Shown one piece after another: positions 2,062 to 47,423 of a stretch of 64,000 nt of DNA. The stretch spans positions 750,069 to 814,068 of the forward strand of contig CAVRET010000002.1 in NCBI GenBank assembly GCA_963720265.1, in the 5' to 3' direction. The DNA comes from an uncultured bacterium (lineage in GTDB: Bacteria > Patescibacteriota > Saccharimonadia > UBA4664). Made by a program: the position numbers and the translations under genes. Below the pieces are notes generated by a model, which was not told where the DNA came from, did no database searches, and was given only the letters and a program-made list of their open reading frames with translations. The first letter of the stretch is position 1; the number at the start of each line of letters is the position of its first letter.

Positions 2062-2643
2062 ATGACCGGACGCACACACGACGCCGCGGCTCTGACCGCG
2101 CTCATCATTGCCGCCATTCTGTACCCGCCGGGTAGTATTACGCTGGCAACGGCACTTATTGCTCTGTTGGCCAACCAAATCGGCGGCATCACGCCCGACA
2201 TCGACCAACCCACAGCCCCGTTCTGGCGCAACCTGCCGGCCGAGGGGTTCTTGGGTAGGCTATTCGATAAAGCAGCCGGCGGTCATCGTTTCCTCACGCA
2301 CTCAATCATTGGTGTGGCGGCGTTCTGTTGGCTGGCGCACTGGCTGCTGGTCTTTCTGCATCCCATTATGCCCCACGTGGACATCACGCTCGTGTGGTAC
2401 GCCTTTGTAATCGGCATTGTTAGTCACCTCATAATGGACACGTTCACCAAAGAGGGCGTGCCGTGGCTGCTGCCCATACCTATTAAATTTGGCCTGCCAC
2501 CCTTCAAAGACCTGCGCGTCACCACCGGTAAATCGGTCGAGATGTTCATTATTTTTCCCGGGCTGCTTGTGCTCGACGTTTGGCTGATTGCCCGGCACTA
2601 TCACGCGCTCGTGGCCTATCTGCACCTACATTTGCACTCATAA
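2062..2643 (+). CDS. membrane-bound metal-dependent hydrolase, YdjM/DUF457-like
   Basis: Multi-TM protein with HRFLTHS and HLIMDTF histidine motifs typical of the LexA-regulated YdjM family. Confidence 0.5.
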   Translation: MTGRTHDAAALTALIIAAILYPPGSITLATALIALLANQIGGITPDIDQPTAPFWRNLPAEGFLGRLFDKAAGGHRFLTHSIIGVAAFCWLAHWLLVFLHPIMPHVDITLVWYAFVIGIVSHLIMDTFTKEGVPWLLPIPIKFGLPPFKDLRVTTGKSVEMFIIFPGLLVLDVWLIARHYHALVAYLHLHLHS

Positions 2644-2725
2644 AATCTAAACAGTCAGCCGGTGGTTGGTGCGGGGCGCTTAAGGCCCCAGCACCAACCC
2701 ACCACAACACTTCGCACGACGAGCG

Positions 2726-3157
2726 CTACTCCTCGCACCTCCGCGCCTTGGCCTCGGCGGCCAGCACATAACGGTGCATCGGGAGTGAGCAGAGGTTCGG
2801 GTTGCTCATGGCGTAGACCATGAGCATGCGAGCGAGCGAGTTGAACGCGGCGTCCACGCTCCCGGCCGCGACCTCGTACGCGTAGGTGAACCAGTAATGG
2901 TCCGGCCACTGATGGTAGTTGAAGCGCCGGTGTCGAATCCTACTCATCGCACCGACCACCAGTCGACCGGTCACCAGGTCGATCTCCTCGACCCGGATCG
3001 CGAAGTTGGGATCGCCCAGCAAGGGGACCAGCTTCGCGCACGCTTCTCCTAGCGTCATCTGCGCCCAGCCGGCAAAACCGAAAGTCACGGAATTCTCGTA
3101 AGGGTGATGCGTGGCGGCGCAGGCAGTTACAGCGATCAAATCATCATTACCTTCCAT
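2726..3157 (-). CDS. hypothetical protein (143 aa)
   Basis: ORF with balanced composition. The antisense alternatives are Arg/Pro-rich, as expected for high-GC artefacts. Confidence 0.4.
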   Translation of the reverse strand: MEGNDDLIAVTACAATHHPYENSVTFGFAGWAQMTLGEACAKLVPLLGDPNFAIRVEEIDLVTGRLVVGAMSRIRHRRFNYHQWPDHYWFTYAYEVAAGSVDAAFNSLARMLMVYAMSNPNLCSLPMHRYVLAAEAKARRCEE

Positions 3158-3204
3158 GCCCGTCCTTTCCTCGTTGCTATTATGGTGGGCTGACTATTTG
3201 GATT

Positions 3205-4449
3205 TCAATTGGGTTCTGCCGGACCCGCGCCTCCTTTCCAGGAGAACGCGGGCCCGGCTTGTTCCATCACTTCGTGGCGAGCTTCCGGTCGGCGAACATC
3301 GCCGCGCAGGGCACGTCGGCCTTGTGGAGTTCCGTCGAGGAACACCGGCCGGCCGCCGAGCAGGAAGTCCGGCTGCTTGCCGTCGACCAGCGCTGGCGAC
3401 ACGATCACCGTGTCTCCGGGCGCCAGCTGCTCGCCGCGCGGCCCCTTGGGGTCGTGCCGCAGGATCACCGGACCTTTGGGGGTCTTGATGGTCACCTGCA
3501 GCGCGCGCCCACCGGGCATCGGCACCGGCTGCACCTTAAGGAATTCGATGTCCGCGTCCCGGAGCGCGAGCTCCAGATCGTGGTCGTATTCCATCATGTG
3601 CCGCCAGGTCAGGAGCACCGGCTCGCCGCCAATCGGCTCGGGCGGGCGGAAACCCCGCCGAAAGCCCTCGGCCAGCCAGCGCCAGCGAGCCGGAGTCTGC
3701 GCCGGACGATCCTTCCAGAACGTCTGGTGCATCTCGTGCCGCAGGTGCTGGAACAGCTCCACGCTCCGCCGCCCGCGCGCGTTGTAGCGCACGAGAACAT
3801 AGCCCTGCAGCACCAGGTTCCACGGGTGAAGCGAATTCACCCCCGCCGCGGCCTCGATCCGCATCGGGATCGGCAGGCCGAGGATCACCTGGAGCTGCTC
3901 TTCGCTGTCGATCATGTAGAGGTGCTTGACGACCTCGGCCATGACCTCGTTGAAGAGCTCCCGGTTGCTGAGCATGCTGGCCAGCGCCGCGTGGTGCTTC
4001 AGCACCTCGTGGGCGTTGTCCAGTGCCAGCTTGCGGGCGAAGTCGCGCAGCGCCTCGGGCGCACCACCGTAGAGCACCTGGGCCGACGCTTCGTCGTTCC
4101 AGAACGCCTGCCGGTGGTAGGAACGGAAGTGCCAGTTGTCGTGCGTCTGCGCGAGCCGTTCGAACAGGGCCCGCACCTCTTCACGGCTGTAGCCGGCCGC
4201 CAGCAGCTCCGGCACGTACTTGAGCCGGACGCCGTTGCCGTAGACCTCGTCGCCACCCCACTCCACGAGCGGAACCTCGACGAACTTCCGGCCCAGGCTG
4301 CCGAGCAGGTCGTCCGATGCGCCCAGTTCAAGCGCTTCGAACAGTACCCGCGCCGGCAGGTTGTCCTCGTCCGGATACCTCCGGCCGAGCTCTTCGCCGA
4401 CGGCCGCATCGCGCATGCGAACGATGGTCTCGTTGTCCATGTCGTTCAT
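3205..4449 (-). CDS. hypothetical protein (414 aa)
   Basis: Long ORF with acidic, diverse composition. The mirror plus-strand ORF 3259..4554 is Arg/Val-rich and looks like a GC artefact. A strong sigma70 promoter lies about 230 nt upstream at 4683-4711. Confidence 0.6.
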   Translation of the reverse strand: MNDMDNETIVRMRDAAVGEELGRRYPDEDNLPARVLFEALELGASDDLLGSLGRKFVEVPLVEWGGDEVYGNGVRLKYVPELLAAGYSREEVRALFERLAQTHDNWHFRSYHRQAFWNDEASAQVLYGGAPEALRDFARKLALDNAHEVLKHHAALASMLSNRELFNEVMAEVVKHLYMIDSEEQLQVILGLPIPMRIEAAAGVNSLHPWNLVLQGYVLVRYNARGRRSVELFQHLRHEMHQTFWKDRPAQTPARWRWLAEGFRRGFRPPEPIGGEPVLLTWRHMMEYDHDLELALRDADIEFLKVQPVPMPGGRALQVTIKTPKGPVILRHDPKGPRGEQLAPGDTVIVSPALVDGKQPDFLLGGRPVFLDGTPQGRRALRGDVRRPEARHEVMEQAGPAFSWKGGAGPAEPN

Positions 4450-4682
4450 GACGTCTCCTCCGATGTTTCGAACGAATGTTCTAAACTTGGCGCGGGACCA
4501 TCAGCCCCACACCTCGGATTCGCGCGCCGCGACGACAGACAGGTTGAAGTGTGAACTTGTCAGTCAGAAGGAGGTGAGGGGCGCCCTATGGCGCTCGTCC
4601 CAACGTCCTCTGAACCTACTCTTCATCGCGCCAGTCCCTCCCTTCAAGGTAGAATGTGGTTCTTGCGGATTTAGATCGCAAT

Positions 4683-4711
4683 ATTATAGCATGAAAATAA
4701 TAAATTATCAA
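4683..4711 (-). promoter_or_regulatory. sigma70-like promoter TTGATA-17-TATAAT (minus strand), long leader to CDS 3205..4449
   Basis: Minus-strand -35 TTGATA is plus 4706-4711 and -10 TATAAT is plus 4683-4688, with an exact 17-nt spacer. It lies in an AT-rich islet and IS982 IR-L starts 12 bp upstream. Confidence 0.4.
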
Positions 4712-4722
4712 TAGCCAACTTT

Positions 4723-5629
4723 CCCTGAATCTAAAAACCTAGCCAACTAGAAAACGAGCGGGCGCATACTGTTTCTTGTAAGAGAAAACAAACATGCAAC
4801 CACTCGCTCTCGAATCACATCATATCGTGGATTTATTTGTCGTCATAGACGACGCCGTAGCAGAACCGACCCGGCCGCAGGGTGGCCGGCCAAAACTTGT
4901 TCGTGACTCAGAAATCATTACCCTTTTAATCTGGAATTGTATATCGGATACGCGTCAGCGTACCCTTAAATCCATCTTTCATTGGGCCTTGTTGTACCAC
5001 CGTCGTGACGTGCCCAGGCTCGGTACATATGGGGCTTTTGTGGCCCATTGCCACCGTCTTTTGCCTCAACTTCTCGAGCTTTTGGGGCAGATGCTGGTTC
5101 CAGCCGAGATCCAGCTAGTAGATTCAACCAGGCTGCCGGTGTGCCGTAACCACCGGGCCGACAGTTACAAAGTGGCAGCCGGTCTGGCGGGCTGGGGTAA
5201 AAACTGGCAGGGCTTTTGGTTTGGATTTAAGTTGCACGCGGCGGTGGACGTGGAAGGGTGGCTTTCGGCCGTGACCTTTACTCCAGCTGACGTCTACGAC
5301 GGTCATGTGACGCCCGGGCTGGTACGGCCCGAAACTAAAATTGTAGTGGGCGACAGCCATTACGGCGACAAAATCGCCCGGGAAAAGCTTTGGCGCGAGC
5401 ATGGTGTAGTGGTTGTAGCACCGGTTCATTACCGGCAAGTTTCTCAAATTATGGCTTCGTGGCAACAAAAACTTCTTGCTGCACGAGTCAAAGTCGAATG
5501 CACATTTGACTACTTAAAAGAACATCTGAACTTAGTTAGTTCATTCCCGCGGAGCAAAAACGGCTATCTGCTCCATTACGTCAGGATTTTGCTGGGCTAC
5601 CAGATGGGACGGGGTTTTTAGATTCAGGG
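4723..5629 (+). mobile_element. IS982-family insertion sequence (about 907 bp)
   Basis: Perfect 17-bp terminal inverted repeats: ccctgaatctaaaaacc at 4723-4739 and ggtttttagattcaggg at 5613-5629. They enclose a single DDE transposase ORF, and IR-R overlaps the transposase stop codon. Confidence 0.7.
4794..5621 (+). CDS. IS982-family DDE transposase (275 aa)
   Basis: Length, single-ORF organisation and overall sequence are typical of IS982 transposases. It is bounded by the IS inverted repeats. Confidence 0.7.
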   Translation: MQPLALESHHIVDLFVVIDDAVAEPTRPQGGRPKLVRDSEIITLLIWNCISDTRQRTLKSIFHWALLYHRRDVPRLGTYGAFVAHCHRLLPQLLELLGQMLVPAEIQLVDSTRLPVCRNHRADSYKVAAGLAGWGKNWQGFWFGFKLHAAVDVEGWLSAVTFTPADVYDGHVTPGLVRPETKIVVGDSHYGDKIAREKLWREHGVVVVAPVHYRQVSQIMASWQQKLLAARVKVECTFDYLKEHLNLVSSFPRSKNGYLLHYVRILLGYQMGRGF

Positions 5630-5640
5630 TTAACACATCA

Positions 5641-5683
5641 CTTAACACAGCGAAGCCCCGGAATGGGGATCCGCTGTGTTAAG
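5641..5683. repeat. 12-bp perfect palindrome with nested GC hairpin abutting IS right end
   Basis: cttaacacagcg (5641-5652) and cgctgtgttaag (5672-5683) enclose ccccggaatgggg. It lies between IS982 IR-R and the stop of CDS 5727..6584. Confidence 0.4.
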
Positions 5684-5726
5684 CATGCGCATCACCCCTT
5701 CCAGGGCTGGTAAGTTGTGGCCGGTG

Positions 5727-6584
5727 TTACTCGTCGGCCGTCTCGCGTGGCACGCCGGCGACGTCAAGAACGGCGCCGATCAGTTGGTAGTCGGTCCCGA
5801 AAGGCCAAAACTGCGCACAGCCCCGCGCCCACGGCGGAGCCGGGACCTCGTGCGGCGAGTCGATTGGCTGCCAGGCGATGAACCGCACCCGGAGCCGGAC
5901 AGCGGCGATCAGGTGCCGAGTCGACGCATTGGTGGGTGCAATGTCCCCGTGCTCTCCCTGGATCTGCTCACGAACCAGCAGAACCGGTTCGACCCCGGCG
6001 CCCAGTAGCCTCTCGCATCGCTCGCTTGCATCGACTGCCGATTCGGCGAAGTAGGACTGGAGTTGGGTGCCGGGAACGGTCTGGGCCATGAGCTCGGACA
6101 GGTACTGGACATGATGGTCGTTTTCACTAGCTACCACCAGGCTCACCCGCGCGAGCGGCAGGCGCTGCCACCACAAATACTGGCGCTTCACCTCCGCGAA
6201 TACGAGTTCCAGGAGGCCGCTGGCGCTCTGGCCGAAATCGCCCCACCAGGCCTTGCCGAAGCCGGTCTGCTCATCCCACAGCACAACCGCCGGCTGAGAC
6301 CGAGCTCCCAGGCGCGATTCGTGCGGCTTGAACAGCCGCCAGTCGGGCGCCCCAGTACCAGGCGCGTGATCGTACGCGGCGTGGCCTACCGCTAGCCTAG
6401 CCTCCACGTCGCCGGGCCCCTCGTTTCCGATGTCAACGCGCTTAATCCGGCGCAAGCCGAGCTCGCGGTCAAGCTGCAGGTAGCCGAGCGGCAGTTCGCC
6501 ATGCGGGCCATTGATCGGTACAACGACACTACCAATCGGCCCCGCGGGGACCTCGCCCATTGCGACGTCGTGTCCATACAGCAT
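5727..6584 (-). CDS. hypothetical protein (285 aa)
   Basis: ATG at 6584 is preceded by GAGGAGA 7 nt upstream. The ORF-track start at 6644 is probably too long. No confident family assignment. Confidence 0.55.
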   Translation of the reverse strand: MLYGHDVAMGEVPAGPIGSVVVPINGPHGELPLGYLQLDRELGLRRIKRVDIGNEGPGDVEARLAVGHAAYDHAPGTGAPDWRLFKPHESRLGARSQPAVVLWDEQTGFGKAWWGDFGQSASGLLELVFAEVKRQYLWWQRLPLARVSLVVASENDHHVQYLSELMAQTVPGTQLQSYFAESAVDASERCERLLGAGVEPVLLVREQIQGEHGDIAPTNASTRHLIAAVRLRVRFIAWQPIDSPHEVPAPPWARGCAQFWPFGTDYQLIGAVLDVAGVPRETADE

Positions 6585-6677
6585 CGTCGTTCTCCTCTCA
6601 CGGTTCGGTGTCTGGTACGAACAAAAATGATAGCCTAGAAACAAGCAAAGTCAACCGCGGCTGTCAGCTGTCATACA

Positions 6678-7079
6678 TCAGCCCCGCTGCTCCAGCTCGC
6701 GGATCGCGCCGTGTCCCAGGCCAAAGTAATGCGCTACCTCGTGCCACACGGTTTGGTGCACCAGGCGCTCAAGCTCGGCTTCGTCTCGCGCCACCCACTC
6801 GTGCGGCCGCTGGAATATTGTAATCGTATCCGGCGCCACGCCGTTGTAACCATTACCACGAGCCGGCAAAGGAATGCCTTGATACAGGCCCAAAAGCGTA
6901 CCGCGCCCGTGCAATACTCCACCGGATGTCAGCTGCTGCCGGCTCGGCTCGTCCGCCACCAAAAACGCCACATTCTCGAGATGCGACTTAAACCGTTCCG
7001 GGATCTCGGCCACGGCCCGCTCCACCAGCGTCTGAAACTCATCTTCAGAAACATGAATCATGCACCCAGCATATATCAA
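6678..7079 (-). CDS. zincin-like metallopeptidase family protein (DUF1025/PF06262-like)
   Basis: About 130 aa with a C-terminal HEVAHYFG (HExxH) motif and an N-terminal VSEDEFQTLVERAV..LENV.FLV pattern characteristic of this small family. Confidence 0.65.
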   Translation of the reverse strand: MIYAGCMIHVSEDEFQTLVERAVAEIPERFKSHLENVAFLVADEPSRQQLTSGGVLHGRGTLLGLYQGIPLPARGNGYNGVAPDTITIFQRPHEWVARDEAELERLVHQTVWHEVAHYFGLGHGAIRELEQRG

Positions 7080-7139
7080 ATAAATAATTGCATTTCAGGT
7101 TGGTTCCGGGTGCCTTACTGGCCACCCGGAACCAACCGC

Positions 7140-7733
7140 TTACGGCTGGCACACAAACCGGTAGGTCCGGTCAACCAGCCGCTTCTTCCAGCCCTGCACA
7201 TGGCGGTTGAAGGTTGCCGTGAGCCGCCAGATTGCCGCCGGCGACAGGCTGTAATCTTCCACGATATCCGCTGATGCACCGGCGATCAGATGCATTTGCA
7301 GCTCGGCCTCAACGTTCACCGGGTTCACGACCATGACGATCGCCATGCCGGTGTCAGCTAGCCGGCTCAGGTGGTAGGCGCTGGGTGGTATGTCGGTATC
7401 CGCCGGCACCACAACGGCACGTCTGCCGGCTTTCGTCAGCGCGTCCGCAATCACCGAAGCCGTTTCCCAGTAGTCCCAGTGGTGGGCCGGCTGCCGCACC
7501 ACCAAAACCGGCCGGTCACCGGTCAGCTGCGCGATCTGCTCCGCCACTCTGCCGGCCTGAGCCCTGCCCTCCGTCGTAAGCTCCCACTCGCGGCGATCAG
7601 GACCGCCGGCCGCATCGCACGGCATCACCAGCAAGGCTTCGACGGTCCGCCGCTCTGGCATCGGCAGGGTACCACCGCTCACGGCAAACTGCAGCCGTTG
7701 AAACGCCGACCTCAGCCGGGCTTGACCCCACAT
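7140..7733 (-). CDS. hypothetical protein, paralog family A (member 1)
   Basis: Aligns with the downstream neighbour 7766..8302 (RTVEALLVMPCDAAGGPD vs KTLDVIMMVSPPGTGASGD; RPVLVV vs RPIVII; IPP vs YPP). The true start may be the internal Met near 7661. Confidence 0.5.
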   Translation of the reverse strand: MWGQARLRSAFQRLQFAVSGGTLPMPERRTVEALLVMPCDAAGGPDRREWELTTEGRAQAGRVAEQIAQLTGDRPVLVVRQPAHHWDYWETASVIADALTKAGRRAVVVPADTDIPPSAYHLSRLADTGMAIVMVVNPVNVEAELQMHLIAGASADIVEDYSLSPAAIWRLTATFNRHVQGWKKRLVDRTYRFVCQP

Positions 7734-7765
7734 CTCAGGCCTCCTCTCGATTGGCCTCAGAAAAA

Positions 7766-8302
7766 TCAGAACACGTACTGGCGTGACTCCTCGCGTGCGA
7801 CCGTGCCACCGGCCTCGCCCTGTGCGACCATCATGTAGGTCGCAGTGAGCATGACCACGGAGCCGGGCAGCAACTCGGCGTCCTGCAAGTCGATACCGCC
7901 GCGGGCCAGGTCACTGCCGATGTGCTCCGAACTTGCCACTAGCACGATCACTCCACCGAGCTGCTCGAGATACGGATACATGTTCTCTTGCAGCGGAGGA
8001 TAGATATGGTCGTGCGTCATCCTGACGTCGCAGCCGGCGACCTGCATGCGCTCCAGGACCTGCTGTGCCGCCTGTCCATGGAACGCCGGCGCCAGGCCGC
8101 CGTTTATGATCACGATCGGCCGCTGATTGGCCAACTCGACGATCCTCTGTACCGCCCGGTCGAAGATCGCGGCGCTGTCGCCGACGAGCTGCCAGTTGGG
8201 AACGTCGCCGGACGCACCGGTTCCCGGCGGCGATACCATCATGATGACATCGAGGGTCTTTGTGGTGCCGTGCGTCGTGGACTCTGCCGCTGCACTCGTC
8301 AT
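7766..8302 (-). CDS. hypothetical protein, paralog family A (member 2)
   Basis: 178-aa ORF with an alpha/beta-like pattern (RPIVIINGG..GGVIVLVASSEHIG). It is preceded by the conserved promoter module and AAGGGAG RBS. Confidence 0.6.
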   Translation of the reverse strand: MTSAAAESTTHGTTKTLDVIMMVSPPGTGASGDVPNWQLVGDSAAIFDRAVQRIVELANQRPIVIINGGLAPAFHGQAAQQVLERMQVAGCDVRMTHDHIYPPLQENMYPYLEQLGGVIVLVASSEHIGSDLARGGIDLQDAELLPGSVVMLTATYMMVAQGEAGGTVAREESRQYVF

Positions 8303-8363
8303 CGTACGCTCCCTTGTTCGCTGGATCGAGAATACCTGCTGTTGTTCGCTTGGCGTGAATAAT

Positions 8364-8392
8364 ATTAAATACTAATATAATAGATGAGTCAA
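8364..8392 (-). promoter_or_regulatory. sigma70-like promoter TTGACT-17-TTTAAT (conserved cassette module, copy 1)
   Basis: Minus-strand -35 is plus 8387-8392 and -10 is plus 8364-8369, with an exact 17-nt spacer. It is followed by the conserved ATTATTCACGCC motif and is homologous to the modules at 9026 and 9697. Confidence 0.5.
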
Positions 8393-8396
8393 TGAG

Positions 8397-8443
8397 ACAA
8401 AAAATCACCGGTGGCCGCGCATACGTTCACGCGCGGCCACCGG
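8397..8443 (-). terminator. intrinsic terminator (13-bp GC stem, 10-nt loop, U6 tract on minus strand)
   Basis: ccggtggccgcgc-atacgttcac-gcgcggccaccgg is followed on the minus strand by UGAUUUUUUG. It lies 30 nt downstream of the stop of CDS 8472..8990. Confidence 0.6.
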
Positions 8444-8471
8444 CTACTTCACGAACCCCCCACTTGGTGAT

Positions 8472-8990
8472 TCAACTGGCCCGCGGCGGCCCGGGCTCCG
8501 GATCCGGCTCCGCGAACATCGTCTCCACCACAATGAGAACGGCGCCTCCTCCAGGCAAGTAGATGTGCAGGAACGGCAGCCCCGCGTCGACACCGAGCTT
8601 CGCGCATAGGCCGCGGGCAGCTAGCTTGACCGCGGCCGGCTCCAGCGGACCGGCCACGACCACCATCCCGCGCTTACCAGGCTCGAGCGACTCGAATCCG
8701 GCAAGCGATGCGAAGGATTCGCCCGGATTCTCCTCGGGCACCGCGATGGTGTAGTCGACATAGGCTCGCCGGGCGGCCGCTTCTTCTACTTGACTCATGC
8801 CCTGCGGCAGTCGCAGTAGCCGCGACAACCGCAGGGTCACGAAGCGGGAGCCCGGGTCAATATCTACTACCTTGGGGTTACCCAGGCGGTGTATCTTGGC
8901 CAGCAGCGTCAGAGCCGCCTCTTTCGTTAGCTTCCCTTCTGCCAGCTGTTGCCGACCCGGGCCGTGCACTGTTACTAGCAATGCGTCCAT
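8472..8990 (-). CDS. hypothetical protein, paralog family B (member 1)
   Basis: 172 aa starting MDALLVTVHG and containing AYVDYTIAVPEEN. It is paralogous to 9156..9659 (MKLVVTVYG / EYDYTFAVAEGG). Confidence 0.6.
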   Translation of the reverse strand: MDALLVTVHGPGRQQLAEGKLTKEAALTLLAKIHRLGNPKVVDIDPGSRFVTLRLSRLLRLPQGMSQVEEAAARRAYVDYTIAVPEENPGESFASLAGFESLEPGKRGMVVVAGPLEPAAVKLAARGLCAKLGVDAGLPFLHIYLPGGGAVLIVVETMFAEPDPEPGPPRAS

Positions 8991-9025
8991 CGCCCCATCC
9001 TTCCACTCGTTTGGGCGTAAAGAAT

Positions 9026-9054
9026 ATTAAATACTAAATTAAAACCCTAATCAA
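9026..9054 (-). promoter_or_regulatory. sigma70-like promoter TTGATT-17-TTTAAT (cassette module, copy 2)
   Basis: Minus-strand -35 is plus 9049-9054 and -10 is plus 9026-9031, with a 17-nt spacer. The downstream leader GGAAGGATGGGGCGATG matches copy 3. Confidence 0.45.
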
Positions 9055-9055
9055 T

Positions 9056-9100
9056 AATACAACCATCACCGGGGCCGCGCATATCAGCACGCGGCCCCGG
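9056..9100 (-). terminator. terminator-like hairpin (11-bp stem; compensatory changes relative to copies 1 and 3)
   Basis: ccggggccgcg / cgcggccccgg with a 10-nt loop. The paired positions changed together relative to copy 1 (T to G in the 5' arm and A to C in the 3' arm). The downstream tract on the minus strand is U-rich but less clean. Confidence 0.5.
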
Positions 9101-9155
9101 TTGTCTCGCCGTCCAGCCTGGGACCACGAGTGATTCACTCCGCCGTTTCCGATCG

Positions 9156-9659
9156 CTACTCGGGCTGACGCCACACGATCACCAGAACGCTGGCATCGGC
9201 CAGGCGGATCACGCGATAGTCATAAGGGGTCAGGCTCATCTCGGCCGCCAGCCTGCGCGCAGGAACCCAGAGCTGCGATTCCGCCAGGCGGGTACCGTTG
9301 AGCACCGAGATGCCGCGCTCCTGCGGGATGAGCAGTTTGAATCCGACCAGCCCCGGTCCCAGCCCAACCGGCCGCCCGCCCTCCGCCACTGCGAAGGTGT
9401 AGTCGTACTCCGGGAACTCGGTCAGTGCGTCGACGAGCTGGACCATGCCCGTCCGCGTTGCCAGGAGCTCTGAGCTGTGCAGGGCTACAAATTGATCGGG
9501 GTAGGCCGCGCTCACGTCCTGGGACCCCGCGCTGCCTACGAGCGCAAGCGTCCCCATGGCCAGCTCGAACGGCATCACGCCGCAAAAGAGCGGAACGCTG
9601 GAGTCGGTGTCGGGAATGCCGTACACCGTCACCACGAGCTTCATCGCCGTGTCATTCAT
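9156..9659 (-). CDS. hypothetical protein, paralog family B (member 2)
   Basis: The start is assigned to ATG at 9659 (MNDTAMKLVV...) by homology of its leader CGAAGGGATGTGGCGATG to copy 2. The longer ORF-track start at 9695 lies inside the conserved promoter element. Confidence 0.6.
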   Translation of the reverse strand: MNDTAMKLVVTVYGIPDTDSSVPLFCGVMPFELAMGTLALVGSAGSQDVSAAYPDQFVALHSSELLATRTGMVQLVDALTEFPEYDYTFAVAEGGRPVGLGPGLVGFKLLIPQERGISVLNGTRLAESQLWVPARRLAAEMSLTPYDYRVIRLADASVLVIVWRQPE

Positions 9660-9696
9660 CGCCACATCCCTTCGTGTGTGCTGAGGCGTGAACAAT

Positions 9697-9725
9697 ATTA
9701 AATGCCCATATAGTCACTCGGTCAA
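9697..9725 (-). promoter_or_regulatory. sigma70-like promoter TTGACC-17-TTTAAT (cassette module, copy 3)
   Basis: Minus-strand -35 is plus 9720-9725 and -10 is plus 9697-9702, with a 17-nt spacer. The -35 box directly abuts the U-tract of the upstream terminator. Confidence 0.5.
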
Positions 9726-9771
9726 CAAAAAAACACCGGTGACCGCGAATACGTTCGCGCGCGGCCACCGG
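9721..9771 (-). terminator. intrinsic terminator (12-bp stem with one mismatch, U7 tract on minus strand)
   Basis: ccggtgaccgcg..cgcggccaccgg is followed on the minus strand by UGUUUUUUUG. It lies downstream of the truncated paralog 9965..10279. Confidence 0.6.
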
Positions 9772-9964
9772 TTCTTCATCTGCACCCCTCTGAGCCGTTC
9801 TGGTCCTGGGCTTACATCGGCGTCCACTTTCGTACGACAACTATGGCTGCGCCGCTGGGCAGGGGGATTACCTCTACATCCGGGTTCCCGAATCCGATGC
9901 TTGCCGCGTCGGCCAGCTCGCGGACGATCTGGGCGAGCGCCACAGGGTTGGGCGCGTTGGCCAC

Positions 9965-10279
9965 CTACTTGTAAGCCCACTCGCCGGTGAGCATGTGGAT
10001 CTGTCCGTCCCCGTCACTCACCTCATGCTCGAAGATGTACTCAAACAAACCGAACTGCCCCACGTCAGTGCGCGTCTCGCCAACCGGCAGCTCGATTAGC
10101 TCCGGCAAGCGCACCGAGTAGACACTGCCATCCCGCCGCTGCCCGTCGCAGAAGGGGTGATTGCTCACACGCGCGAAGTAGGGGAAGACGTCACCGGCGC
10201 CCATCCGGGCAGTCCCGACCAGCATGGATGCCACTTGGCCATCAGGGTCGATCCCCAGGATGGTCACGTTTACAGGCAT
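9965..10279 (-). CDS. truncated family-B paralog (104 aa; covers only the N-terminal part; possible gene remnant)
   Basis: VNVTILGIDPDGQ.. and FEYIFEHEV align to MKLVVTVYGIPDTD.. and EYDYTFAVAE of family B. There is a GAGAGGAG RBS 9 nt upstream and a TTGAAA-17-GATAAT promoter. Confidence 0.45.
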   Translation of the reverse strand: MPVNVTILGIDPDGQVASMLVGTARMGAGDVFPYFARVSNHPFCDGQRRDGSVYSVRLPELIELPVGETRTDVGQFGLFEYIFEHEVSDGDGQIHMLTGEWAYK

Positions 10280-10329
10280 GTCGAAAAACTCCTCTCGTCT
10301 CGGCAGTCAGGTACGATTCGCGGGACACA

Positions 10330-10358
10330 ATTATCCACCAAAATGAAGCATTTTTCAA
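10330..10358 (-). promoter_or_regulatory. sigma70-like promoter TTGAAA-17-GATAAT for 9965..10279
   Basis: Minus-strand -35 is plus 10353-10358 and -10 is plus 10330-10335, with an exact 17-nt spacer. It sits in an AT-rich divergent intergenic region. Confidence 0.35.
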
Positions 10359-10388
10359 CTTTTTGAGTAAAGCCTTACAATCTATACC

Positions 10389-10925
10389 ATGACCACTTCA
10401 GCTGTTACCCGTTCCACCCAATCCGATGCCCAATGGCGTGCCGAAATTAGCACCTTCATCCGCCAAGCTAGCCGCAGCTTGCGCCCGCTCCTCATCGACT
10501 ACCTCTTCGACCCCGACACCGGCGAACTCGTGCCCCAGCGCCTCTACCGCTACCACGTCTACGATGATTACTTAACCCGCGACCGCGACGACTTCGAATT
10601 CGGCTTCGACCTCATCACGCGCGCCGAGCACATCACGAAACCGCGCTCCTATGGCGTTTACATCATCGAGCTCGACAACAACAAAAACCACCTCTACGTC
10701 GGCCAAACCTGGTACGAGCCGCACGAGCGTCTAGCACAGCACAACACCGGCTTCGCGGCCTTCCACGCCGCCCGCCCGTTCAAGCGCGGCAGCCGGGGAG
10801 TCCTCCGCCCGGATCTCTACTCGCACCTCCCGCGCTTCCGCTCTCAATCCCAAGCCGAAGAACTCGAAGCCCGCGTCGCCCATGAACTCACACGCCAAGG
10901 CTTCCGCGTCGAGGGCGGGCACTAA
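10389..10925 (+). CDS. GIY-YIG nuclease family protein
   Basis: YGVYIIELDNNKNHLYVGQT followed by ERLAQHNTG matches the GIY-YIG core (GIY...YIG...R..H N.G) of YhbQ/Slx1-like small nucleases. It also has an N-terminal extension of about 80 aa. Confidence 0.6.
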   Translation: MTTSAVTRSTQSDAQWRAEISTFIRQASRSLRPLLIDYLFDPDTGELVPQRLYRYHVYDDYLTRDRDDFEFGFDLITRAEHITKPRSYGVYIIELDNNKNHLYVGQTWYEPHERLAQHNTGFAAFHAARPFKRGSRGVLRPDLYSHLPRFRSQSQAEELEARVAHELTRQGFRVEGGH

Positions 10926-10987
10926 GGTAACAAAGTCTAATACGAATAATTATAAAACGGCAGGTAAAGCTGTTGAAGCGGACACGC

Positions 10988-11016
10988 TTGAGGTGGTAGT
11001 GAAACAAGAAGATAAT
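10988..11016 (+). promoter_or_regulatory. sigma70-like promoter TTGAGG-17-GATAAT for the DUF2283-cupin genes
   Basis: -35 at 10988-10993 and -10 at 11011-11016, with an exact 17-nt spacer. The ATG at 11059 has GGAG 9 nt upstream. Confidence 0.4.
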
Positions 11017-11058
11017 AAAGCTCATCATTATTACGGAATATTTCTTGGAGTCGGAGTC

Positions 11059-11265
11059 ATGAAGATTACCTACGACAAACAGGCGGATGCGGCTTACATT
11101 AAGCTGACCAATAAGGCCAAATGCCAGGTTAGTCGCAAGGTGTCTGAAGACGTCATGGTTGACTATGCCGAAGGTGGTACGGTGGTGGGTATTGAGATTT
11201 TGGACGCTTCAAAGAACATGCCGCTATCGGTTAAACAGACCCAAGTGCCGATCGAAAGCGCTTAG
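11059..11265 (+). CDS. DUF2283 family protein (68 aa)
   Basis: MKITYDKQADAAYIKL...VVGIEILDASK is the hallmark DUF2283 pattern. The ORF-track upstream extension to 10882 is low-complexity and overlaps the promoter. Confidence 0.6.
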   Translation: MKITYDKQADAAYIKLTNKAKCQVSRKVSEDVMVDYAEGGTVVGIEILDASKNMPLSVKQTQVPIESA

Positions 11266-11647: not shown

Positions 11648-12040
11648 CTAAAACTCCAGCCTAAACGTGGGGTGGTCGGTGAGATCGGGTAGCTGGTCAA
11701 AGTATTGGTTCACCTCACGGCCGACCCGCCGGCGGTAGTGGGCCACCACCCGCTCGCGCTCCGGACCCGATACCTCCACCACTGTAAACGGGTTTTTAAC
11801 CCAGCCGCGCCGTAGCTCGCCACGCCCGGCGGCGCGCAGATTGCGCACCCAATCGCTGTCGCCGCGCGTTGAAACCACGTATTTTTTACCCTCAACCGTC
11901 ACGGGTATCACGGCCGCCACCCTCACCACGCCGCTGCGACGGCCGGGAATTGCCACTGCCGGCGCACCAATTCGGGCCAGGAAATTATTCAGTTTGCGCG
12001 CTTTGCCATCCGGTTTGATATATTTGCGCGAATCCGCCAT
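11648..12040 (-). CDS. nitroreductase-family deazaflavin (F420H2)-dependent oxidoreductase (DUF385)
   Basis: About 130 aa with RIGAPAVAIPGRRSG..VIPVTVEGKKYVVSTRGDSDWVRNL, the characteristic F420H2-dependent reductase family signature. Confidence 0.7.
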   Translation of the reverse strand: MADSRKYIKPDGKARKLNNFLARIGAPAVAIPGRRSGVVRVAAVIPVTVEGKKYVVSTRGDSDWVRNLRAAGRGELRRGWVKNPFTVVEVSGPERERVVAHYRRRVGREVNQYFDQLPDLTDHPTFRLEF

Positions 12041-41460: not shown

Positions 41461-42567
41461 ATGAGACGTTATCACTTGCTTCCCTCGATTACTCGTCCCA
41501 AAACCTTTCTCAGCCTTATTCTCAGCACCATTGCCGCAGTGGCAATGGTGGGCGCCGGCGGACTTACCAACTATGCGCAAGCTAGCGGCTCAGCCACGCT
41601 CTATTTCACACCATCATCAGGCACGTATACCGTTGGCCAGACGCTGACCGTCACAATCTATACCAACACTGGCGGCGATCCGGTCAATGCAGTTGAGGCC
41701 GACTTTTCGTATCCCACCTCAACACTGACATTCCAAAGCATTGACGGTAGCAGCTCGGCCTTCGGCATCTCGGCCTCTCAAACCGGTGGTGGTGGTACGG
41801 TTAAAATCGCCCGTGGCAACACGAGCGGACTTACCGGCACAGAGCTCGTGGCGGTTGTGCATTTCACGGTCAGCGCTGCCGGCTCAGGATCACTGAGCTA
41901 TCTCGGCTCGTCCGCGGTGGTACGCAGCACCGATAACCAAAACGTCCTCAGCTCCACTTCCGGCGCCAGCTTTACCCTTGCGGCCGCGTCAACGCCGACT
42001 TCCACGCCCAAGCCTTCAGGCTCCACTCACACTCCCACACCGGCTCCAAGCAGCGGCAGCAAGACCAGTCCCACCCCGAAGCCGTCATCATCCGCCTCGC
42101 CAACGCCCTCAGCCGCCGCCGGCACAACAAGTAACACGCCCAGCCCAACGCCCATCAGTATTAATACCTCGCCCACCCCGGCGCCATCACACAGCTCGAC
42201 CAAAATCTTGGGCATTGCCGCCCTTGGCATTCCGATTCTAGCCCTCCTCGTCCTTGGTGCATTTATTCTCAGCCGCTCGCACATCCCGAGTGTGGCGTCA
42301 CACGGCGCTGACAGCGACGCATTGCCTCTCACCCCGCCCGTTACGCCGTCTGCTCCGACCATGCCGGTAAACGGCACAGCATTGCCGCCCACGCCACCAC
42401 CACCGTCGCCACAGGCACCAGTGCCACCAAGCCAGCCAGTCCCGCCAAGCCAGCCGGCGCCACCGAGCCAAACCACCCCGCCAAGTGGGCCCACCCCGCC
42501 GGCCGCCCAGCCGCCAAACCAGACATTTTACCCGGACGCCAACTCCAAGCACGACGGCCCCGCATGA
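41461..42567 (+). CDS. membrane-anchored cohesin-domain protein with Pro/Thr/Ser-rich linker (scaffoldin-like)
   Basis: Signal peptide, a cohesin-like domain (ATLYFTPSSGTYTVGQTLTVTIYTNTGGDPVNAVEADFSY...), and a long PT/S linker. It also has a TM helix (ILGIAALGIPILALLVLGAFIL) and a Pro-rich tail. Its stop overlaps the next start by ATGA. Confidence 0.6.
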   Translation: MRRYHLLPSITRPKTFLSLILSTIAAVAMVGAGGLTNYAQASGSATLYFTPSSGTYTVGQTLTVTIYTNTGGDPVNAVEADFSYPTSTLTFQSIDGSSSAFGISASQTGGGGTVKIARGNTSGLTGTELVAVVHFTVSAAGSGSLSYLGSSAVVRSTDNQNVLSSTSGASFTLAAASTPTSTPKPSGSTHTPTPAPSSGSKTSPTPKPSSSASPTPSAAAGTTSNTPSPTPISINTSPTPAPSHSSTKILGIAALGIPILALLVLGAFILSRSHIPSVASHGADSDALPLTPPVTPSAPTMPVNGTALPPTPPPPSPQAPVPPSQPVPPSQPAPPSQTTPPSGPTPPAAQPPNQTFYPDANSKHDGPA

Positions 42568-45500
42568 CGCCTAGACTCATCTCTCCCCGTCACGGACAGG
42601 GATTGAAGAGCATGCTTGCCCAACAAAAAGCGCTCTCCTGGGCAACTTTGGTCCCGCTCGTGGCGTTGTGTGTAGTGGTTGGCCTCGTCCTCAGGCCCCA
42701 TTCGCGTGCTGATCAAGTGGATGGGGTAAATTACGAAATCTGCAACGAAGGGTCGCAATATCTTACCAGTCCCTGGACGTACGATGCGCTGGCCAGTGGC
42801 AGCCAAAGTTATACAGTGGCACAGTACGAGGCGCTGTCCGGGTATGGCACGACCTTACCGCCACTGCCTTCATACATTTCGTCCCAGGACTCAACGACTG
42901 AAGCGGCCGTCATCTATGCGCCTGGCAGCACAGTCAATGAGCCGGCCTACAATTTCCCAAACACGCCCATCGTGTCCTTTTTTGAAGGCGGCGCCTATAA
43001 CGACATTGGCTTTGATAGTGTAAGCGGCGATCAGTTCATCGGTGGATCGGCGGCCGGCTATCCGGAGCCCGCGTTTGACGACGGCGGTAATGCCGAGGGC
43101 ATTGATGGGCAAAATGCCACTTTTGATTTTTCAGGCGGAGCCAGCACACTTACCGCTACCGCAAACTCCGGAGCGACGACCATTACGACCGCCGACGCCA
43201 TTCCCGGCTACATTGCCGATCTTACCTTTACCGACGGTTCCACCTACCCGATTGGCAACGTTTCGGGGACAACAATCACGCTGGACTCGCCTCTAACGAG
43301 CAGCGAGTCAGCCGGTAGCGCTGTCTGGGCCAACCGCCAGGCGCCGATTGGCAAGGTGGCATCAGGTGCCAGCCAGGGCGCCACGAGTGTTACGCTCGAC
43401 AGCTCAGCGCTGCCGCTCGTGCAATACGGCAACATTCGAATTGGCGCCGATAATTACACACTCAGTTCGGTCTCGGGTAACCAGTCCGGCTACACGGTCG
43501 GTGTGCCAGGCTTGGATACGGCCTTGGCAGCGGGCACGCCGATCTACTACGACGGCATGGCCGGAGATGTGACTGTCTCGTATCTGAATATTAACAACGA
43601 CCAGCACACCACCACCGGTACCATTTACACCGGTTCCGGCTGGACCATAACCCACGACAACATTCACGACGGCTACTCGAAAGGACCCGGGTACGGCGTT
43701 GCCCTTTACGGTGGCGACGAAGGCACGATTGAGTACAACTGCTTATCCAAAATGGGGGACTATGGCGAGAACATTTTTGGCACCGGCAGCAAATTTGACT
43801 ACAACGAGGTCTACGAATCAAATTACCAGCCCGACCCCGGTTGCGGCTGCTCCGGCGGCGGTAAATGGTGGGGCACGCTCAACTCCGACATCGTAGACAA
43901 CGCCTTCGTTAACGATGGAATCGGCGACAGTGGTTTTGCCATCTGGCTCGACAACGGGAACACCGGCACACTCATATCCGGCAACTTCTTCAACCAAACG
44001 GCCGGCCCGGCCATTTCGAGCGAAACAGGATTCAACCTCGATATTACCGACAACCTGTTCGAGAATGACAACTGGGGGACCGGTGACGGCTGCGGTAACT
44101 CTAATTGTACTGGCGACGTTGGCTTAAATAGCTCCGGCGGCTTCAATATACCCGGCAGCCGCTACAATAACCAGATTAGTATTTCCGATAACCAGTTCAT
44201 TGACGACTGGGGCGGTGTCGGCATCTGGCAATCCGGTGCTCGTTCCTGTGAGAACTCAGGTGAAGGCTGGCCTCAGGATGCCCCGTACTGCTCCGGCGGC
44301 TTCCCGAATTCCTCCAACACGTCAAACGGCGGCCAGTACTATTTCTCTCATATTGCTGACACTCAATATGGCGGCGCTTCCAACGCGGTCGTACAAGCCG
44401 CCTCGTCCGGCAGTACAACGCTTCTGGTCAACGGCTCCATGGCTACGGATGATCAAATCGGCATCGGCGACCCGGCTTCCACCACCACAGCGAGCACCAC
44501 GGATGTCACCTCACTCGCCGGCTCGCAAACGATCAACGCCGCCTCCACCACCGGTTTCCCGAGTTCAGGCCAGTTGCGCGTCGGGACATCAGCGGCCTGG
44601 AGCGACGCCGGCGGCAGCTATACCGGCGCCATCCTAAGCTACACTGGCACAACCGGCACGAGTTTCACCGGTGTGTCGCTCGTGCGCGGCTCCGGCACCC
44701 TAGCCGGCCCCATCCTACAAGTGCAGCCATACAAAATCACGGGTGAAACTTGCTACGCCAACGATTGCGCGCTTACTATCACACCGGGCCTCAGCGCCTC
44801 TGCGGCCGCCGGCGCCGAGGTGAGTAACGCCGGCACCTGCCAGCTCTATGCCACCAGCGCCGCCACGCCGACGAGCCCTCTAGCCCCCAATGGCACCTCG
44901 TACTTTGACGGCTGCCAGTGGGGGACCAAGAACATTAGCATCACCAGCAACAACTTCATCTTCGATCCGACCACCATGGCGGCCAGCGCCCCACTGAGCG
45001 GTGGCAAAACCACCACCTCCTGTACCGCCGACCACAACAACGACTGCGGCACCAACTTCATGGCCTACCAGGAGGCCGGCGAACCACCGTTCAGTACCTT
45101 CATCGGCGGCAACGCCATGTACTCAAACTCTGCCCTCACCTCCTGTCCGTCGTGGGATTCCGGCTGTTCATCCAGCCCTCTCAAAAACATTAACGCCCTA
45201 TCCAACCCGCCCGACGCGCCGGCAAATAACGGTGAGGCAGCGAATAACGACGTGTGGTCAGATAACACCTATTCCGGACCGTGGGCCTGGAATGCCTACT
45301 CATATGGCGGCTGTGACGAGCCGAGCGACCCCACCACCAACAAGAGCATGCCGGCCGGCGCCTGCAGTGTTGACTTCTCCGACTGGCAAACCGACTGGCA
45401 ACAGGATGCCGGCAGCACCTACTCTGCCAGTCCTCAGCCGACACCCACCACCACGGCTACCCCGACCGTCTCGGCCACTCCAACCCCGAGCGCTACCCCC

Positions 45501-45677
45501 TCGTCTTCGCCCTCGGGCACAACAGGCGACCTCAACAACGATGGCCAAGTCAATATCTTCGACCTTTCTATTCTCCTCAGCGACTGGGGTACCAATAATG
45601 CCACTGCCGACCTTAACCACGACGGCACGGTGAATGTTTTCGACCTTTCCATTCTTCTCAGCCATTGGGGGACCTAG
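42564..45677 (+). CDS. dockerin-bearing right-handed parallel beta-helix protein (putative polysaccharide-active enzyme)
   Basis: C-terminal tandem dockerin repeats DLNNDGQVNIFDLSILLSDWG and DLNHDGTVNVFDLSILLSHWG (DxNxDGxVNxxD calcium loops). The centre holds PbH1-like beta-helix repeats (NAFVNDGIGDSGFAIWLDNGNTGTLISGNFF...). N-terminal signal/TM. Confidence 0.7.
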   Translation: MTPRLISPRHGQGLKSMLAQQKALSWATLVPLVALCVVVGLVLRPHSRADQVDGVNYEICNEGSQYLTSPWTYDALASGSQSYTVAQYEALSGYGTTLPPLPSYISSQDSTTEAAVIYAPGSTVNEPAYNFPNTPIVSFFEGGAYNDIGFDSVSGDQFIGGSAAGYPEPAFDDGGNAEGIDGQNATFDFSGGASTLTATANSGATTITTADAIPGYIADLTFTDGSTYPIGNVSGTTITLDSPLTSSESAGSAVWANRQAPIGKVASGASQGATSVTLDSSALPLVQYGNIRIGADNYTLSSVSGNQSGYTVGVPGLDTALAAGTPIYYDGMAGDVTVSYLNINNDQHTTTGTIYTGSGWTITHDNIHDGYSKGPGYGVALYGGDEGTIEYNCLSKMGDYGENIFGTGSKFDYNEVYESNYQPDPGCGCSGGGKWWGTLNSDIVDNAFVNDGIGDSGFAIWLDNGNTGTLISGNFFNQTAGPAISSETGFNLDITDNLFENDNWGTGDGCGNSNCTGDVGLNSSGGFNIPGSRYNNQISISDNQFIDDWGGVGIWQSGARSCENSGEGWPQDAPYCSGGFPNSSNTSNGGQYYFSHIADTQYGGASNAVVQAASSGSTTLLVNGSMATDDQIGIGDPASTTTASTTDVTSLAGSQTINAASTTGFPSSGQLRVGTSAAWSDAGGSYTGAILSYTGTTGTSFTGVSLVRGSGTLAGPILQVQPYKITGETCYANDCALTITPGLSASAAAGAEVSNAGTCQLYATSAATPTSPLAPNGTSYFDGCQWGTKNISITSNNFIFDPTTMAASAPLSGGKTTTSCTADHNNDCGTNFMAYQEAGEPPFSTFIGGNAMYSNSALTSCPSWDSGCSSSPLKNINALSNPPDAPANNGEAANNDVWSDNTYSGPWAWNAYSYGGCDEPSDPTTNKSMPAGACSVDFSDWQTDWQQDAGSTYSASPQPTPTTTATPTVSATPTPSATPSSSPSGTTGDLNNDGQVNIFDLSILLSDWGTNNATADLNHDGTVNVFDLSILLSHWGT

Positions 45678-45689
45678 CGGGAAACACTA

Positions 45690-47174: not shown

Positions 47175-47423
47175 CTGTGGCAAGAATTAATAATGTAAAA
47201 GTAATGACCTACAAAAAGCAAAGATCACAATTCATGTCTCCGTCCAGGCACTTGCCGCAGCCGCGGTAATTCTAGGGTCGGTCCTTATATCAAAGGACAA
47301 ACTTACTGTTGCGGCATCCGAAATCCTGCTGCTGGTCGTGCTGTACGGTAGTTCCCGGGGCAGGCAAAGAAAAACCAAGTAGCCATTGCCGGATTCAAAA
47401 AGGGATCAATTACAGGGTTTTCA

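Follow-up and report, generated by a model that had tools for sequence, protein, structure and literature searches.

A tandem array of small genes from two sequence families in a candidate hypervariable chromosomal slot of an uncultured bacterium

What kind of locus is formed by five small, co-oriented genes that resemble nothing in the usual family collections and that lie between two well-conserved chromosomal genes? The question arises from a stretch of 64,000 nucleotides of an uncultured bacterium (GTDB lineage Patescibacteriota; Saccharimonadia; UBA4664), positions 750,069 to 814,068 of contig CAVRET010000002.1 in assembly GCA_963720265.1, to which we refer as the window. On its minus strand, between a gene for a GIY-YIG domain protein and a gene for a Zincin_1 mini-metallopeptidase, lie two genes of a family A (A1 and A2) and three of a family B (B1, B2 and B3), with coordinates collected in Table 1. 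An initial annotation had described them as an array of complete, duplicated transcription units in an accessory island, possibly of the immunity or antitoxin type. The explanation that we consider probable is a different one in part: a hypervariable slot of the chromosome, bounded by the GIY-YIG and Zincin_1 genes and belonging to a narrow clade of soil bacteria, in which genes for non-catalytic binding proteins turn over.

The list of open reading frames (ORFs) agrees with the boundaries initially given for all five minus-strand frames. In pairwise BLAST, A1 and A2 are 25% identical along 160 aa (E=1.7e-7), B1 and B2 are 33% identical along 142 aa (E=3e-9), and the two families do not match each other. 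The division into A and B proposed at the outset is therefore sound; a single superfamily comprising both is unsupported, the hhalign probability rising merely from 0.6 to 5% as members are added. The 32 bp between A2 and A1 contain a Shine–Dalgarno (SD) sequence and, as had been noted, no intergenic module, and an SD sequence precedes each of the five genes. All five frames carry the coding signature GC1>GC2<GC3 (GC content at the three codon positions), with GC3 at 0.73-0.83 and GC2 at 0.40-0.50. Their GC3 is native-like, that of the neighbouring SDR gene being 0.76 in a genome of ~60% GC.

The member furthest upstream, B3, had been taken for a truncated gene (B′), which it is not. Its TAG codon (9965-9967) is followed by an in-frame 50-codon ORF (9812..9964) that can be aligned to the C-terminus of B proteins. 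When the two parts are joined, the 155-residue sequence matches the metagenomic protein P0008 from one end to the other (33% identical; E=7e-16, spanning the stop), and the fragment behind the stop matches P0008 alone at E=1.5e-8. A hidden Markov model (HMM) of family B built without B3 recognizes both halves at the correct profile positions (E=2e-15), so that the mutual relatedness of the B members holds for B3 as it does for B1 and B2. Since the stop occupies a conserved Leu/Val column of the alignment, a TTG to TAG change would be its simplest origin, and as TAG also ends B2 in the normal way the codon has not been reassigned. An independent Logan assembly (run ERR11523669) agrees at every position of 12.7 kb, the B3 TAG included. 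Judged by its sequence, B3 is a full-length B gene and a recent pseudogene with a single in-frame stop.

How widespread are the two families? In word-indexed searches, B1, an A profile and a B profile matched, among 5.8 billion protein clusters, only the proteins of the window itself, each as a singleton from one NCBI contig. Family B was the one searched exhaustively: HMMER with the B profile against 1.84 billion representative proteins produced two full-length outside relatives, P0008 and P0009 (E ~1e-6). A cadherin-like protein from this search was spurious, and so were the protocadherin and nitroreductase hits obtained with A and B in sequence and profile searches of the PDB. Scans of the five array proteins and of their relatives against Pfam, NCBIfam, PADLOC and PHROGs yielded no significant match. 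Together with the searches of the large protein sets, this upholds the claim that both families are undescribed at the sequence level.

Relatives of the locus were collected from the contigs encoding P0008 and P0009 and by scanning metagenomes with the conserved Zincin_1 neighbour as the anchor; the related contigs come from soil metagenomes. Every A or B relative found lies in the same slot. From the GIY-YIG to the Zincin_1 side this slot contains B3 (the pseudogene), B2, B1, A2 and A1 in the window, whose five genes are the most found. It contains three genes in L064-67 and L076 (Zincin_1 85% identical to that of the window), namely B, an 86-aa ORF and an A-like gene, the count of three being that of L064; a single B gene in L073 and L074 (69%); and none in L071 and L072 (69-71%), where GIY-YIG is ~30 bp from Zincin_1. 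Two overlapping B genes precede Zincin_1 in L068 (66%), the GIY-YIG side lying past the contig end, and the contig of L069 (87%) begins within an A-like gene directly preceding Zincin_1. The genes upstream of Zincin_1 in L077 and L079-81 (63-66%) are unrelated. Family A is confined to the three closest lineages. Searches with jackhmmer from single seeds close on the same sets and find no further copy in the window, and the ORFs are intact in several lineages.

Two observations on these contigs stand by themselves. The 86-aa ORF of L064 (10606..10866), between the B and A genes, comes with a terminator and a strong promoter of its own (TTGATT-17-TATAAT, the −10 extended by TG), and it may represent a third cassette family. 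Its N-terminus is loosely B-like; the idea of a ‘mini-B’, at E=0.014 in a four-sequence search, is unsupported. In addition, four contigs (L070, L072, L075 and L084) end 125-214 nt upstream of Zincin_1. Such breaks are the pattern expected from co-existing strains that differ here and may reflect them, as they may chance.

The contrast between the array and its surroundings is strong. Between the window and L064 the flanking proteins are 82-92% identical (GIY-YIG 90%, Zincin_1 85%, SDR 89%; the GIY-YIG protein is 84% identical in L073), with 0.06-0.10 nonsynonymous (dN) and mostly 0.31-0.75 synonymous (dS) substitutions per site. The array proteins are ~25-36% identical with a dN of 0.66-1.03, which for most genes equals or exceeds the dS of the flanks. 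The best B pair reaches 32.5% identity by BLAST and a dN of 0.66, while the A proteins give no BLAST match and a dN of ~1.0. On the DNA level the arrays can be aligned solely at a hairpin fragment and at one promoter and 5′ untranslated region (UTR), that of module 1 and the L064 B gene (73% identity, 70 nt). A dN/dS comparison of L064, L066 and L067 was uninformative because these sequences are 99.99% identical.

A second comparison locates the change more precisely. L069 and the L064 genotype (L065/L076) both come from JGI metagenome 3300027648. From 5 nt past the stop codon of the A-like gene onward, 1,771 nt agree at 97.2%, and at 100% beyond position ~837, while within the A-like gene identity is ~50% for the DNA and 41% for the protein. 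Taken over 40 nt at a time, the identity climbs abruptly at the stop codon of the A-like gene, from 0.47 to 0.82, and is 82-93% thereafter. At 0.59, the dN of the A-like gene is higher than the dS of its neighbour Zincin_1 (0.39), and since this contrast ends at the stop codon drift in place cannot explain it. The A-like coding part would seem either to have been replaced by recombination or to be under strong diversifying selection. The suggestion that this is a diversifying locus is borne out by the difference between array and flanks and by this breakpoint.

The intergenic sequences behave differently from the coding parts. It had been proposed that A2, B1 and B2 are each preceded by a hairpin abutting a promoter and, indeed, a module of ~90 nt made of hairpin, T-run and promoter is present in three copies and nowhere else in the window. 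Its 20-nt core, TATTTAATATTNTTCACGCC, occurs 3 times, in the array only, where 0.01 occurrences are expected. Read base by base, the promoters consist of TTGACC, TTGATT or TTGACT, each with a 17-nt spacer and then TTTAAT; the −35 hexamer before B1 (TTGATT) thus deviates from the TTGAC(T/C) initially reported, and the U-tract there is poor. Because the second position of the −10 element TTTAAT is not the conserved A, a generic promoter scanner makes no call. The B3 promoter-like site has no upstream hairpin and lies in the intergenic region between B3 and the divergent GIY-YIG gene. The hairpins of the array have folding energies of −27.6 to −37.8 kcal/mol (z −4.2 to −7.6). Six hairpins located after B genes all fold better on the sense strand (e.g. 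−29.1 versus −16.4 and −26.6 versus −13.8 kcal/mol) and contain 1-5 G•U pairs on that strand versus 0-1 on the antisense strand. This strand bias argues for RNA terminators and a function at the RNA level rather than for DNA recombination sites.

The same arrangement of GC hairpin, T-run, TTGA(C/T)N-17-TAnAAT and SD sequence precedes the genes of L064, L068, L069 and L073, with hairpins and promoters recognizably homologous to those of the window. In L064 the scanner does call terminators and also promoters, namely TTGATT-17-TATAAT and TTGATT-17-TAAAAT, each of which has an extended −10 TG. A homologue of the hairpin that closes the array is also found 3′ of the A-like gene in L064 and L069. 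Rfam returned no match for the window or for the array, and the modules thus belong to no known RNA family. A 17-base module pattern had 62 single matches in unrelated taxa among 185,579 species genomes, and no genome contained three copies; this number is close to the estimated chance for such a pattern, which means that the module is not a widespread repeat. Taken together these features support an array of predicted whole transcription units, each with promoter, SD sequence, ORF and terminator, and we infer that the units are transcribed independently.

Were these units duplicated as a whole, as had been concluded? The module copies are 71-91% identical in a repeat search, the 49-nt promoter parts 71-76% and the 47-nt hairpin parts up to 91%. 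The 91% pair consists of the hairpins before A2 (module 3) and before B2 (module 1). The genes upstream of these two hairpins, B1 and B3, are ~20% identical, and the downstream genes, A2 and B2, are unrelated. Modules must therefore have been copied or homogenized independently of the coding parts; the array of whole units stands, the simple co-copying of modules with their genes does not.

What do the proteins look like? That they belong to no recognizable family remains true for B, and is no longer so for A. An AlphaFold model of A1, made from a two-sequence alignment (predicted local distance difference test, pLDDT, 68; predicted template modelling score 0.69), resembles the SixA/PGAM histidine-phosphatase fold, and Foldseek aligns it to SixA 2RFL at E=1e-6 with probability 1.00. 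By homology to A1, A2 probably has a fold of the same kind. The profiles of A and SixA are aligned by hhalign with a probability of 4.7%, in a single segment, ‘RPLSPTG’ of the L064 A protein against ‘RPLTTNG’ of SixA (sequence verified, PDB 1UJB). Counting back ungapped from this RPL(S/T)xxG motif, R35-T36-G37 of the L064 protein falls on R7-H8-G9 of SixA. At this RHG position the L064 protein has R-T-G, A1 VMPCD and A2 VSPPG, and no member has a His in that stretch. In a low-confidence alignment the second catalytic His (SixA H108, VISHLP) is also absent, the A members having VVNPV, VASSE, VSDGS and VANGS, and the equivalent of SixA Arg21, on the same low-confidence footing, is kept in the L064 protein only and is Trp in A1 and A2. 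Both catalytic histidines are missing in four of four A members. Family A is thus best described as a predicted SixA-like pseudo-phosphatase. It would share the alpha/beta fold of the SixA-like branch of the histidine phosphatase superfamily (1UJC, 2RFL, 3F2I, 4HBZ and the MutT1 C-terminal domain 3FJY) and differs in having neither the nucleophilic nor the second catalytic His and no significant sequence or profile match. Unlike these conserved enzymes, A is also hypervariable and strain-specific.

Family B is an orphan, probably alpha/beta family. Its seven members fall into two old subtypes, I (B1, B2 and P0009) and II (B3, P0008, L068b and L073B), and share only V6, G10 and G64 as invariant residues, with no conserved polar residue among them; no signal peptide was seen by inspection. 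The lack of catalytic histidines in A and of conserved polar residues in B suggests that both are non-catalytic, and binding proteins are the most likely assignment.

In the reading that we favour, the slot would contain a changing number (0-5) of autonomous units, each consisting of a sigma-70-like promoter, an SD sequence, a gene for a cytoplasmic protein of 150-200 aa and an RNA-hairpin terminator. Its content would be turned over by duplication, by loss, by nonsense decay as in B3, and by the wholesale replacement of coding parts, in a birth-and-death manner that the range of copy numbers, the pseudogene, the two old B subtypes and the sharp breakpoint describe in common. The conserved short modules (47-95 nt) probably offer the homology for unequal or inter-strain recombination through which cassettes could be gained, lost or swapped.

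Several points weigh against this explanation. The comparison set comprises about five lineages, mostly on short metagenomic contigs, and the differential retention of old paralogues, of which the two B subtypes are an example, could inflate the apparent rates. The L069 contig may be a chimeric assembly past position ~837, a point well to the right of the jump at the A stop codon. TTTAAT is a non-canonical −10 element, and a good U-tract is missing in two of the four hairpins. The fold of A comes from one AlphaFold model of five on a two-sequence alignment, the other four having a pLDDT of 44-52, and no sequence method ties A to histidine phosphatases (no Pfam hit at E<1, no phosphatase in the PDB profile search). 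For B the structure prediction reached a pLDDT of 45 and a fold was not obtained.

The function of such binding proteins can be considered in more tentative terms. A rapid turnover beside slowly evolving neighbours is the pattern of proteins that face fast-changing outside partners, which favours a role of the immunity or defence type. It is conceivable, if rather doubtful at present, that the array proteins neutralize fast-changing outside antagonists such as competitor toxins or phage proteins. Searches of Pfam, PADLOC, PHROGs and the phage and plasmid databases linked the locus to no toxin, secretion system, phage or known defence gene, and this too counts against our explanation. The initial suggestion of immunity proteins or antitoxins likewise receives no direct support, since neither an adjacent toxin, secretion gene or recombinase nor an NCBIfam match was found to add to it. 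Going one step further, the locus could be a recombinase-free polyimmunity or defence slot of a kind not recognized before. Its modules would then double as expression signals and homology ‘joints’ at which strains could duplicate, delete or exchange coding cassettes, and its two new protective folds would be B and a dead SixA-like domain serving as decoy or inhibitor against incoming toxins or phage proteins; we regard this elaborated version as unlikely. We know of no role for a dead histidine-phosphatase fold in immunity or defence. If the conflict reading were true, two new protein families would join the bacterial immunity and defence repertoire, together with, in a soil lineage that has received little study, a case of cassette shuffling for which no dedicated recombinase is needed.

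Another explanation is that the array consists of functionless duplicates that drift in a recombination-prone slot and are heading for loss. The B3 nonsense mutation and the loss of the array in one lineage are in line with this, as are the near-neutral divergence of B2 and P0009 (dN 0.66, about the flank dS) and the fact that neither family has conserved polar residues. Drifting debris would, on the other hand, hardly keep ORFs of 150-200 codons with SD sequences open in at least four lineages despite >60% amino-acid divergence, nor full-length alignments with conserved hydrophobic and Gly positions, nor promoters and terminators with a strand-specific G•U bias. The divergence of the L064 and L069 A genes, which exceeds the local neutral level and ends at the stop codon, is likewise something that drift in place cannot produce. 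We consider neutral debris an improbable account of the array as a whole.

Scarcely better or worse placed is the idea that A and B are partners of their neighbours, which would inhibit, chaperone or regulate the Zincin_1 peptidase or the GIY-YIG nuclease or serve it as substrates, in the manner of a nuclease/immunity or protease/inhibitor pair. All A and B genes found do lie between these two, B or A directly precedes Zincin_1 in four lineages, and GIY-YIG is transcribed divergently from the first B gene. A co-evolving partner should however track its target, and the supposed partners are 85-90% conserved versus 25-36% for A and B. In L071 and L072 the GIY-YIG and Zincin_1 genes are direct neighbours with no array between them, the distant Zincin_1 genes occur in unrelated contexts, and the copy number varies from 0 to 5. 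Zincin_1 (PF06262, the ‘mini-zincin’ Acel_2062) is itself without a known function (PMC3890501). A partnership of this kind appears to us improbable.

We can give much less credence to the array being the cargo of a mobile element, be it integron-like or rAID-like cassettes, phage morons or an accessory island borne by an insertion sequence. Repeated intergenic sequences between co-oriented small orphans and moron-like promoter-gene-terminator units would suit it, an IS982-type transposase gene lies 1.5 kb from A1, and an rve fragment adjoins Zincin_1 in L064. Against it stand the lack of any integrase or tyrosine recombinase at the locus, the presence of a promoter in front of every cassette, and hairpins that with their near-perfect GC stems, T-runs and sense-strand G•U bias are terminators rather than attC sites. 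The transposase (DDE_Tnp_1_3, 4794..5621), the sole mobile-element gene near the array, is missing at this position in the other lineages, no match to PHROGs or to plasmid and phage databases was found for the locus, the codon composition is native and the flanks are syntenic. For the same reasons the term accessory island, if meant in the mobile sense, has to be given up, and the candidate undescribed system announced initially is borne out in part: the two families are new at the sequence level and the locus is hypervariable, but the predicted A fold is a recognizable, inactivated one and the locus is chromosomal. Very improbable, finally, is a small metabolic or signalling operon with A proteins as active phosphatases or mutases using a non-canonical nucleophile: the predicted fold, the Arg and Gly of RHG and the RPL(S/T)xxG motif retained in the L064 protein and a Cys near the RHG position of A1 would permit it, yet the place of the nucleophile is taken by a different residue in each member (Thr, Cys/Met, Pro), there is no second catalytic His either, Pfam His_Phos gives no hit at E<1, and extreme divergence with strain-level replacement is unlike an enzyme.

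Table 1. Positions in the window of the array genes, the intergenic elements and the two flanking genes
Feature	Position	Strand	Description
GIY-YIG domain gene	10389..10925	+	divergent from B3; conserved upstream anchor
B3 promoter-like site	10330..10358	−	TTGAAA-17-GATAAT, 10/12 consensus match; aligned with module promoters
B3 (B′ of the initial annotation)	9812..10279	−	155 codons, B subtype II; in-frame TAG 9965..9967
Module 1	9685..9772	−	hairpin 9735..9772, T-run 9727..9733, −35 TTGACC 9720..9725, −10 TTTAAT 9697..9702
Module 1 conserved element TTCACGCC	within 9685..9772	−	
B2	9156..9659	−	167 aa, B subtype I; nearest outside relative P0009 (32.5%, BLAST)
Module 2	9014..9100	−	hairpin 9069..9100, weak U-tract; −35 TTGATT 9049..9054; −10 TTTAAT 9026..9031
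B1	8472..8990	−	172 aa, B subtype I
Module 3	8352..8444	−	17-bp-stem terminator 8407..8444, T-run 8399..8404, −35 TTGACT 8387..8392, −10 TTTAAT 8364..8369
A2	7766..8302	−	178 aa, family A; leads A2-A1 pair
A1	7140..7733	−	197 aa, family A; 32 bp after A2; own SD
Array-closing hairpin after A1	7098..7137	−	perfect 15-bp arms, −34 kcal/mol, no clean U-tract
Zincin_1 (PF06262) mini-metallopeptidase gene	6678..7061	−	downstream anchor, conserved in every lineage

The identities initially given to the neighbours, Zincin_1, GIY-YIG, DUF2283 and an IS982-type transposase, agree with Pfam. Within 5 kb on either side of the array the genes are Zincin_1, GIY-YIG, DUF2283, cupin, SDR and the transposase, with no toxin, secretion or recombinase gene adjacent. 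The GIY-YIG neighbour is a stand-alone protein of 178 aa whose N-terminal region of ~85 residues has no Pfam match and is conserved as well as the nuclease domain. In the window the long DUF2283 ORF (10882..11265, plus strand) overlaps the end of the GIY-YIG gene; its start is probably wrong, a 68-aa version from 11059, 88% identical to L064, being called in other assemblies. L064 has two extra genes between DUF2283 and GIY-YIG (8499..9383, encoding 75 aa and 194 aa, the latter with a weak DUF5677 match; window 10925..11059), which indicates that this side too gains and loses small genes. A gene resembling F420H2-dependent quinone reductases encodes 130 aa in the window (11648..12040, minus strand) and 86 aa in L064 (6525..6785); tblastn finds the remainder as a separate piece, which suggests that the L064 gene is frameshifted or truncated. 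Many F420-type enzymes and a GC content of 58-60% were noted besides.

On the other side of the array there is a second variable stretch (2062..6644), bordered by Zincin_1 and by a conserved YdjM gene (2062..2619; 83% identity with L064). It contains two orphan ORFs without Pfam match, 5727..6644 and 3205..4449, both on the minus strand and flanking the transposase; the corresponding place in L064 is taken by a fragment of an rve integrase and two different small ORFs. Further away, the region 42564..59131 encodes a protein of 1037 aa that has a dockerin at its C-terminus, then a protein with a cohesin domain, and on the other strand a 1449-aa protein (Laminin_G_3, CBM_4_9) and a 2460-aa protein without Pfam match, which together may form a cell-surface assembly. 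No toxin domains were found in the large ORFs elsewhere in the window, where CBM, Laminin_G, dockerin and cohesin domains occur instead.

Whatever its function, the locus would provide an example of a chromosomal micro-hotspot in which coding turnover exceeds neutral flank divergence while 90-nt modules are preserved, and it should be useful for the study of the origin, duplication and death of orphan genes. It also holds a warning for annotators that arrays of ‘hypothetical proteins’ may conceal recognizable pseudo-enzyme folds.

It remains to compare the locus with known systems. Replacement-type flexible genomic islands, for example O-antigen or capsule loci, share with the slot a fixed position, conserved flanks, sharp breakpoints and a content that diverges among near-identical strains. 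The slot is tiny in comparison (0.5-3 kb) and encodes small soluble proteins rather than surface-polysaccharide pathways. Phage morons are autonomous promoter-gene-terminator units, and the array shares this layout in silico; it is not located in a prophage, however, has no match in PHROGs or phage databases and is flanked by conserved chromosomal genes. Integron cassette arrays are likewise composed of small orphan ORFs in the same orientation with structured repeats between them and a variable number of cassettes. In contrast to these, the array has no IntI, its repeats are terminator and promoter modules instead of attC sites, and its cassettes are not promoterless.

Polyimmunity loci of polymorphic-toxin systems (SUKH/Imm families) were reportedly described by Zhang, Iyer and Aravind. 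They have in common with the array the tandem arrangement of unrelated small cytoplasmic families, lineage-specific expansion and pseudogenes, while the array has no Imm or SUKH match in Pfam and no adjacent toxin, Rhs, LXG, CDI, WXG100 or secretion gene. PADLOC has no model of a known anti-phage defence system that matches A or B. The AID and rAID-1 loci also consist of co-oriented, small, fast-diverging genes with repeated intergenic sequences and a content that varies between strains. The rAID-1 loci of Bacteroidales are defined by a 5′ XerD-like recombinase, low GC, homology to known type VI secretion system (T6SS) immunity genes and mobile elements (Ross et al., bioRxiv 10.1101/471110). 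The array differs in lacking a XerD-like tyrosine recombinase, the nearest mobile gene being the DDE transposase, and in its native GC3 (0.73-0.83) and chromosomal, syntenic flanks. Its genes have no Pfam, NCBIfam or PADLOC match to known immunity genes, and their homologues were found only in the slot. The locus thus appears to be of a known kind, that of strain-variable arrays of small, fast-evolving genes, with families that are new at the sequence level.

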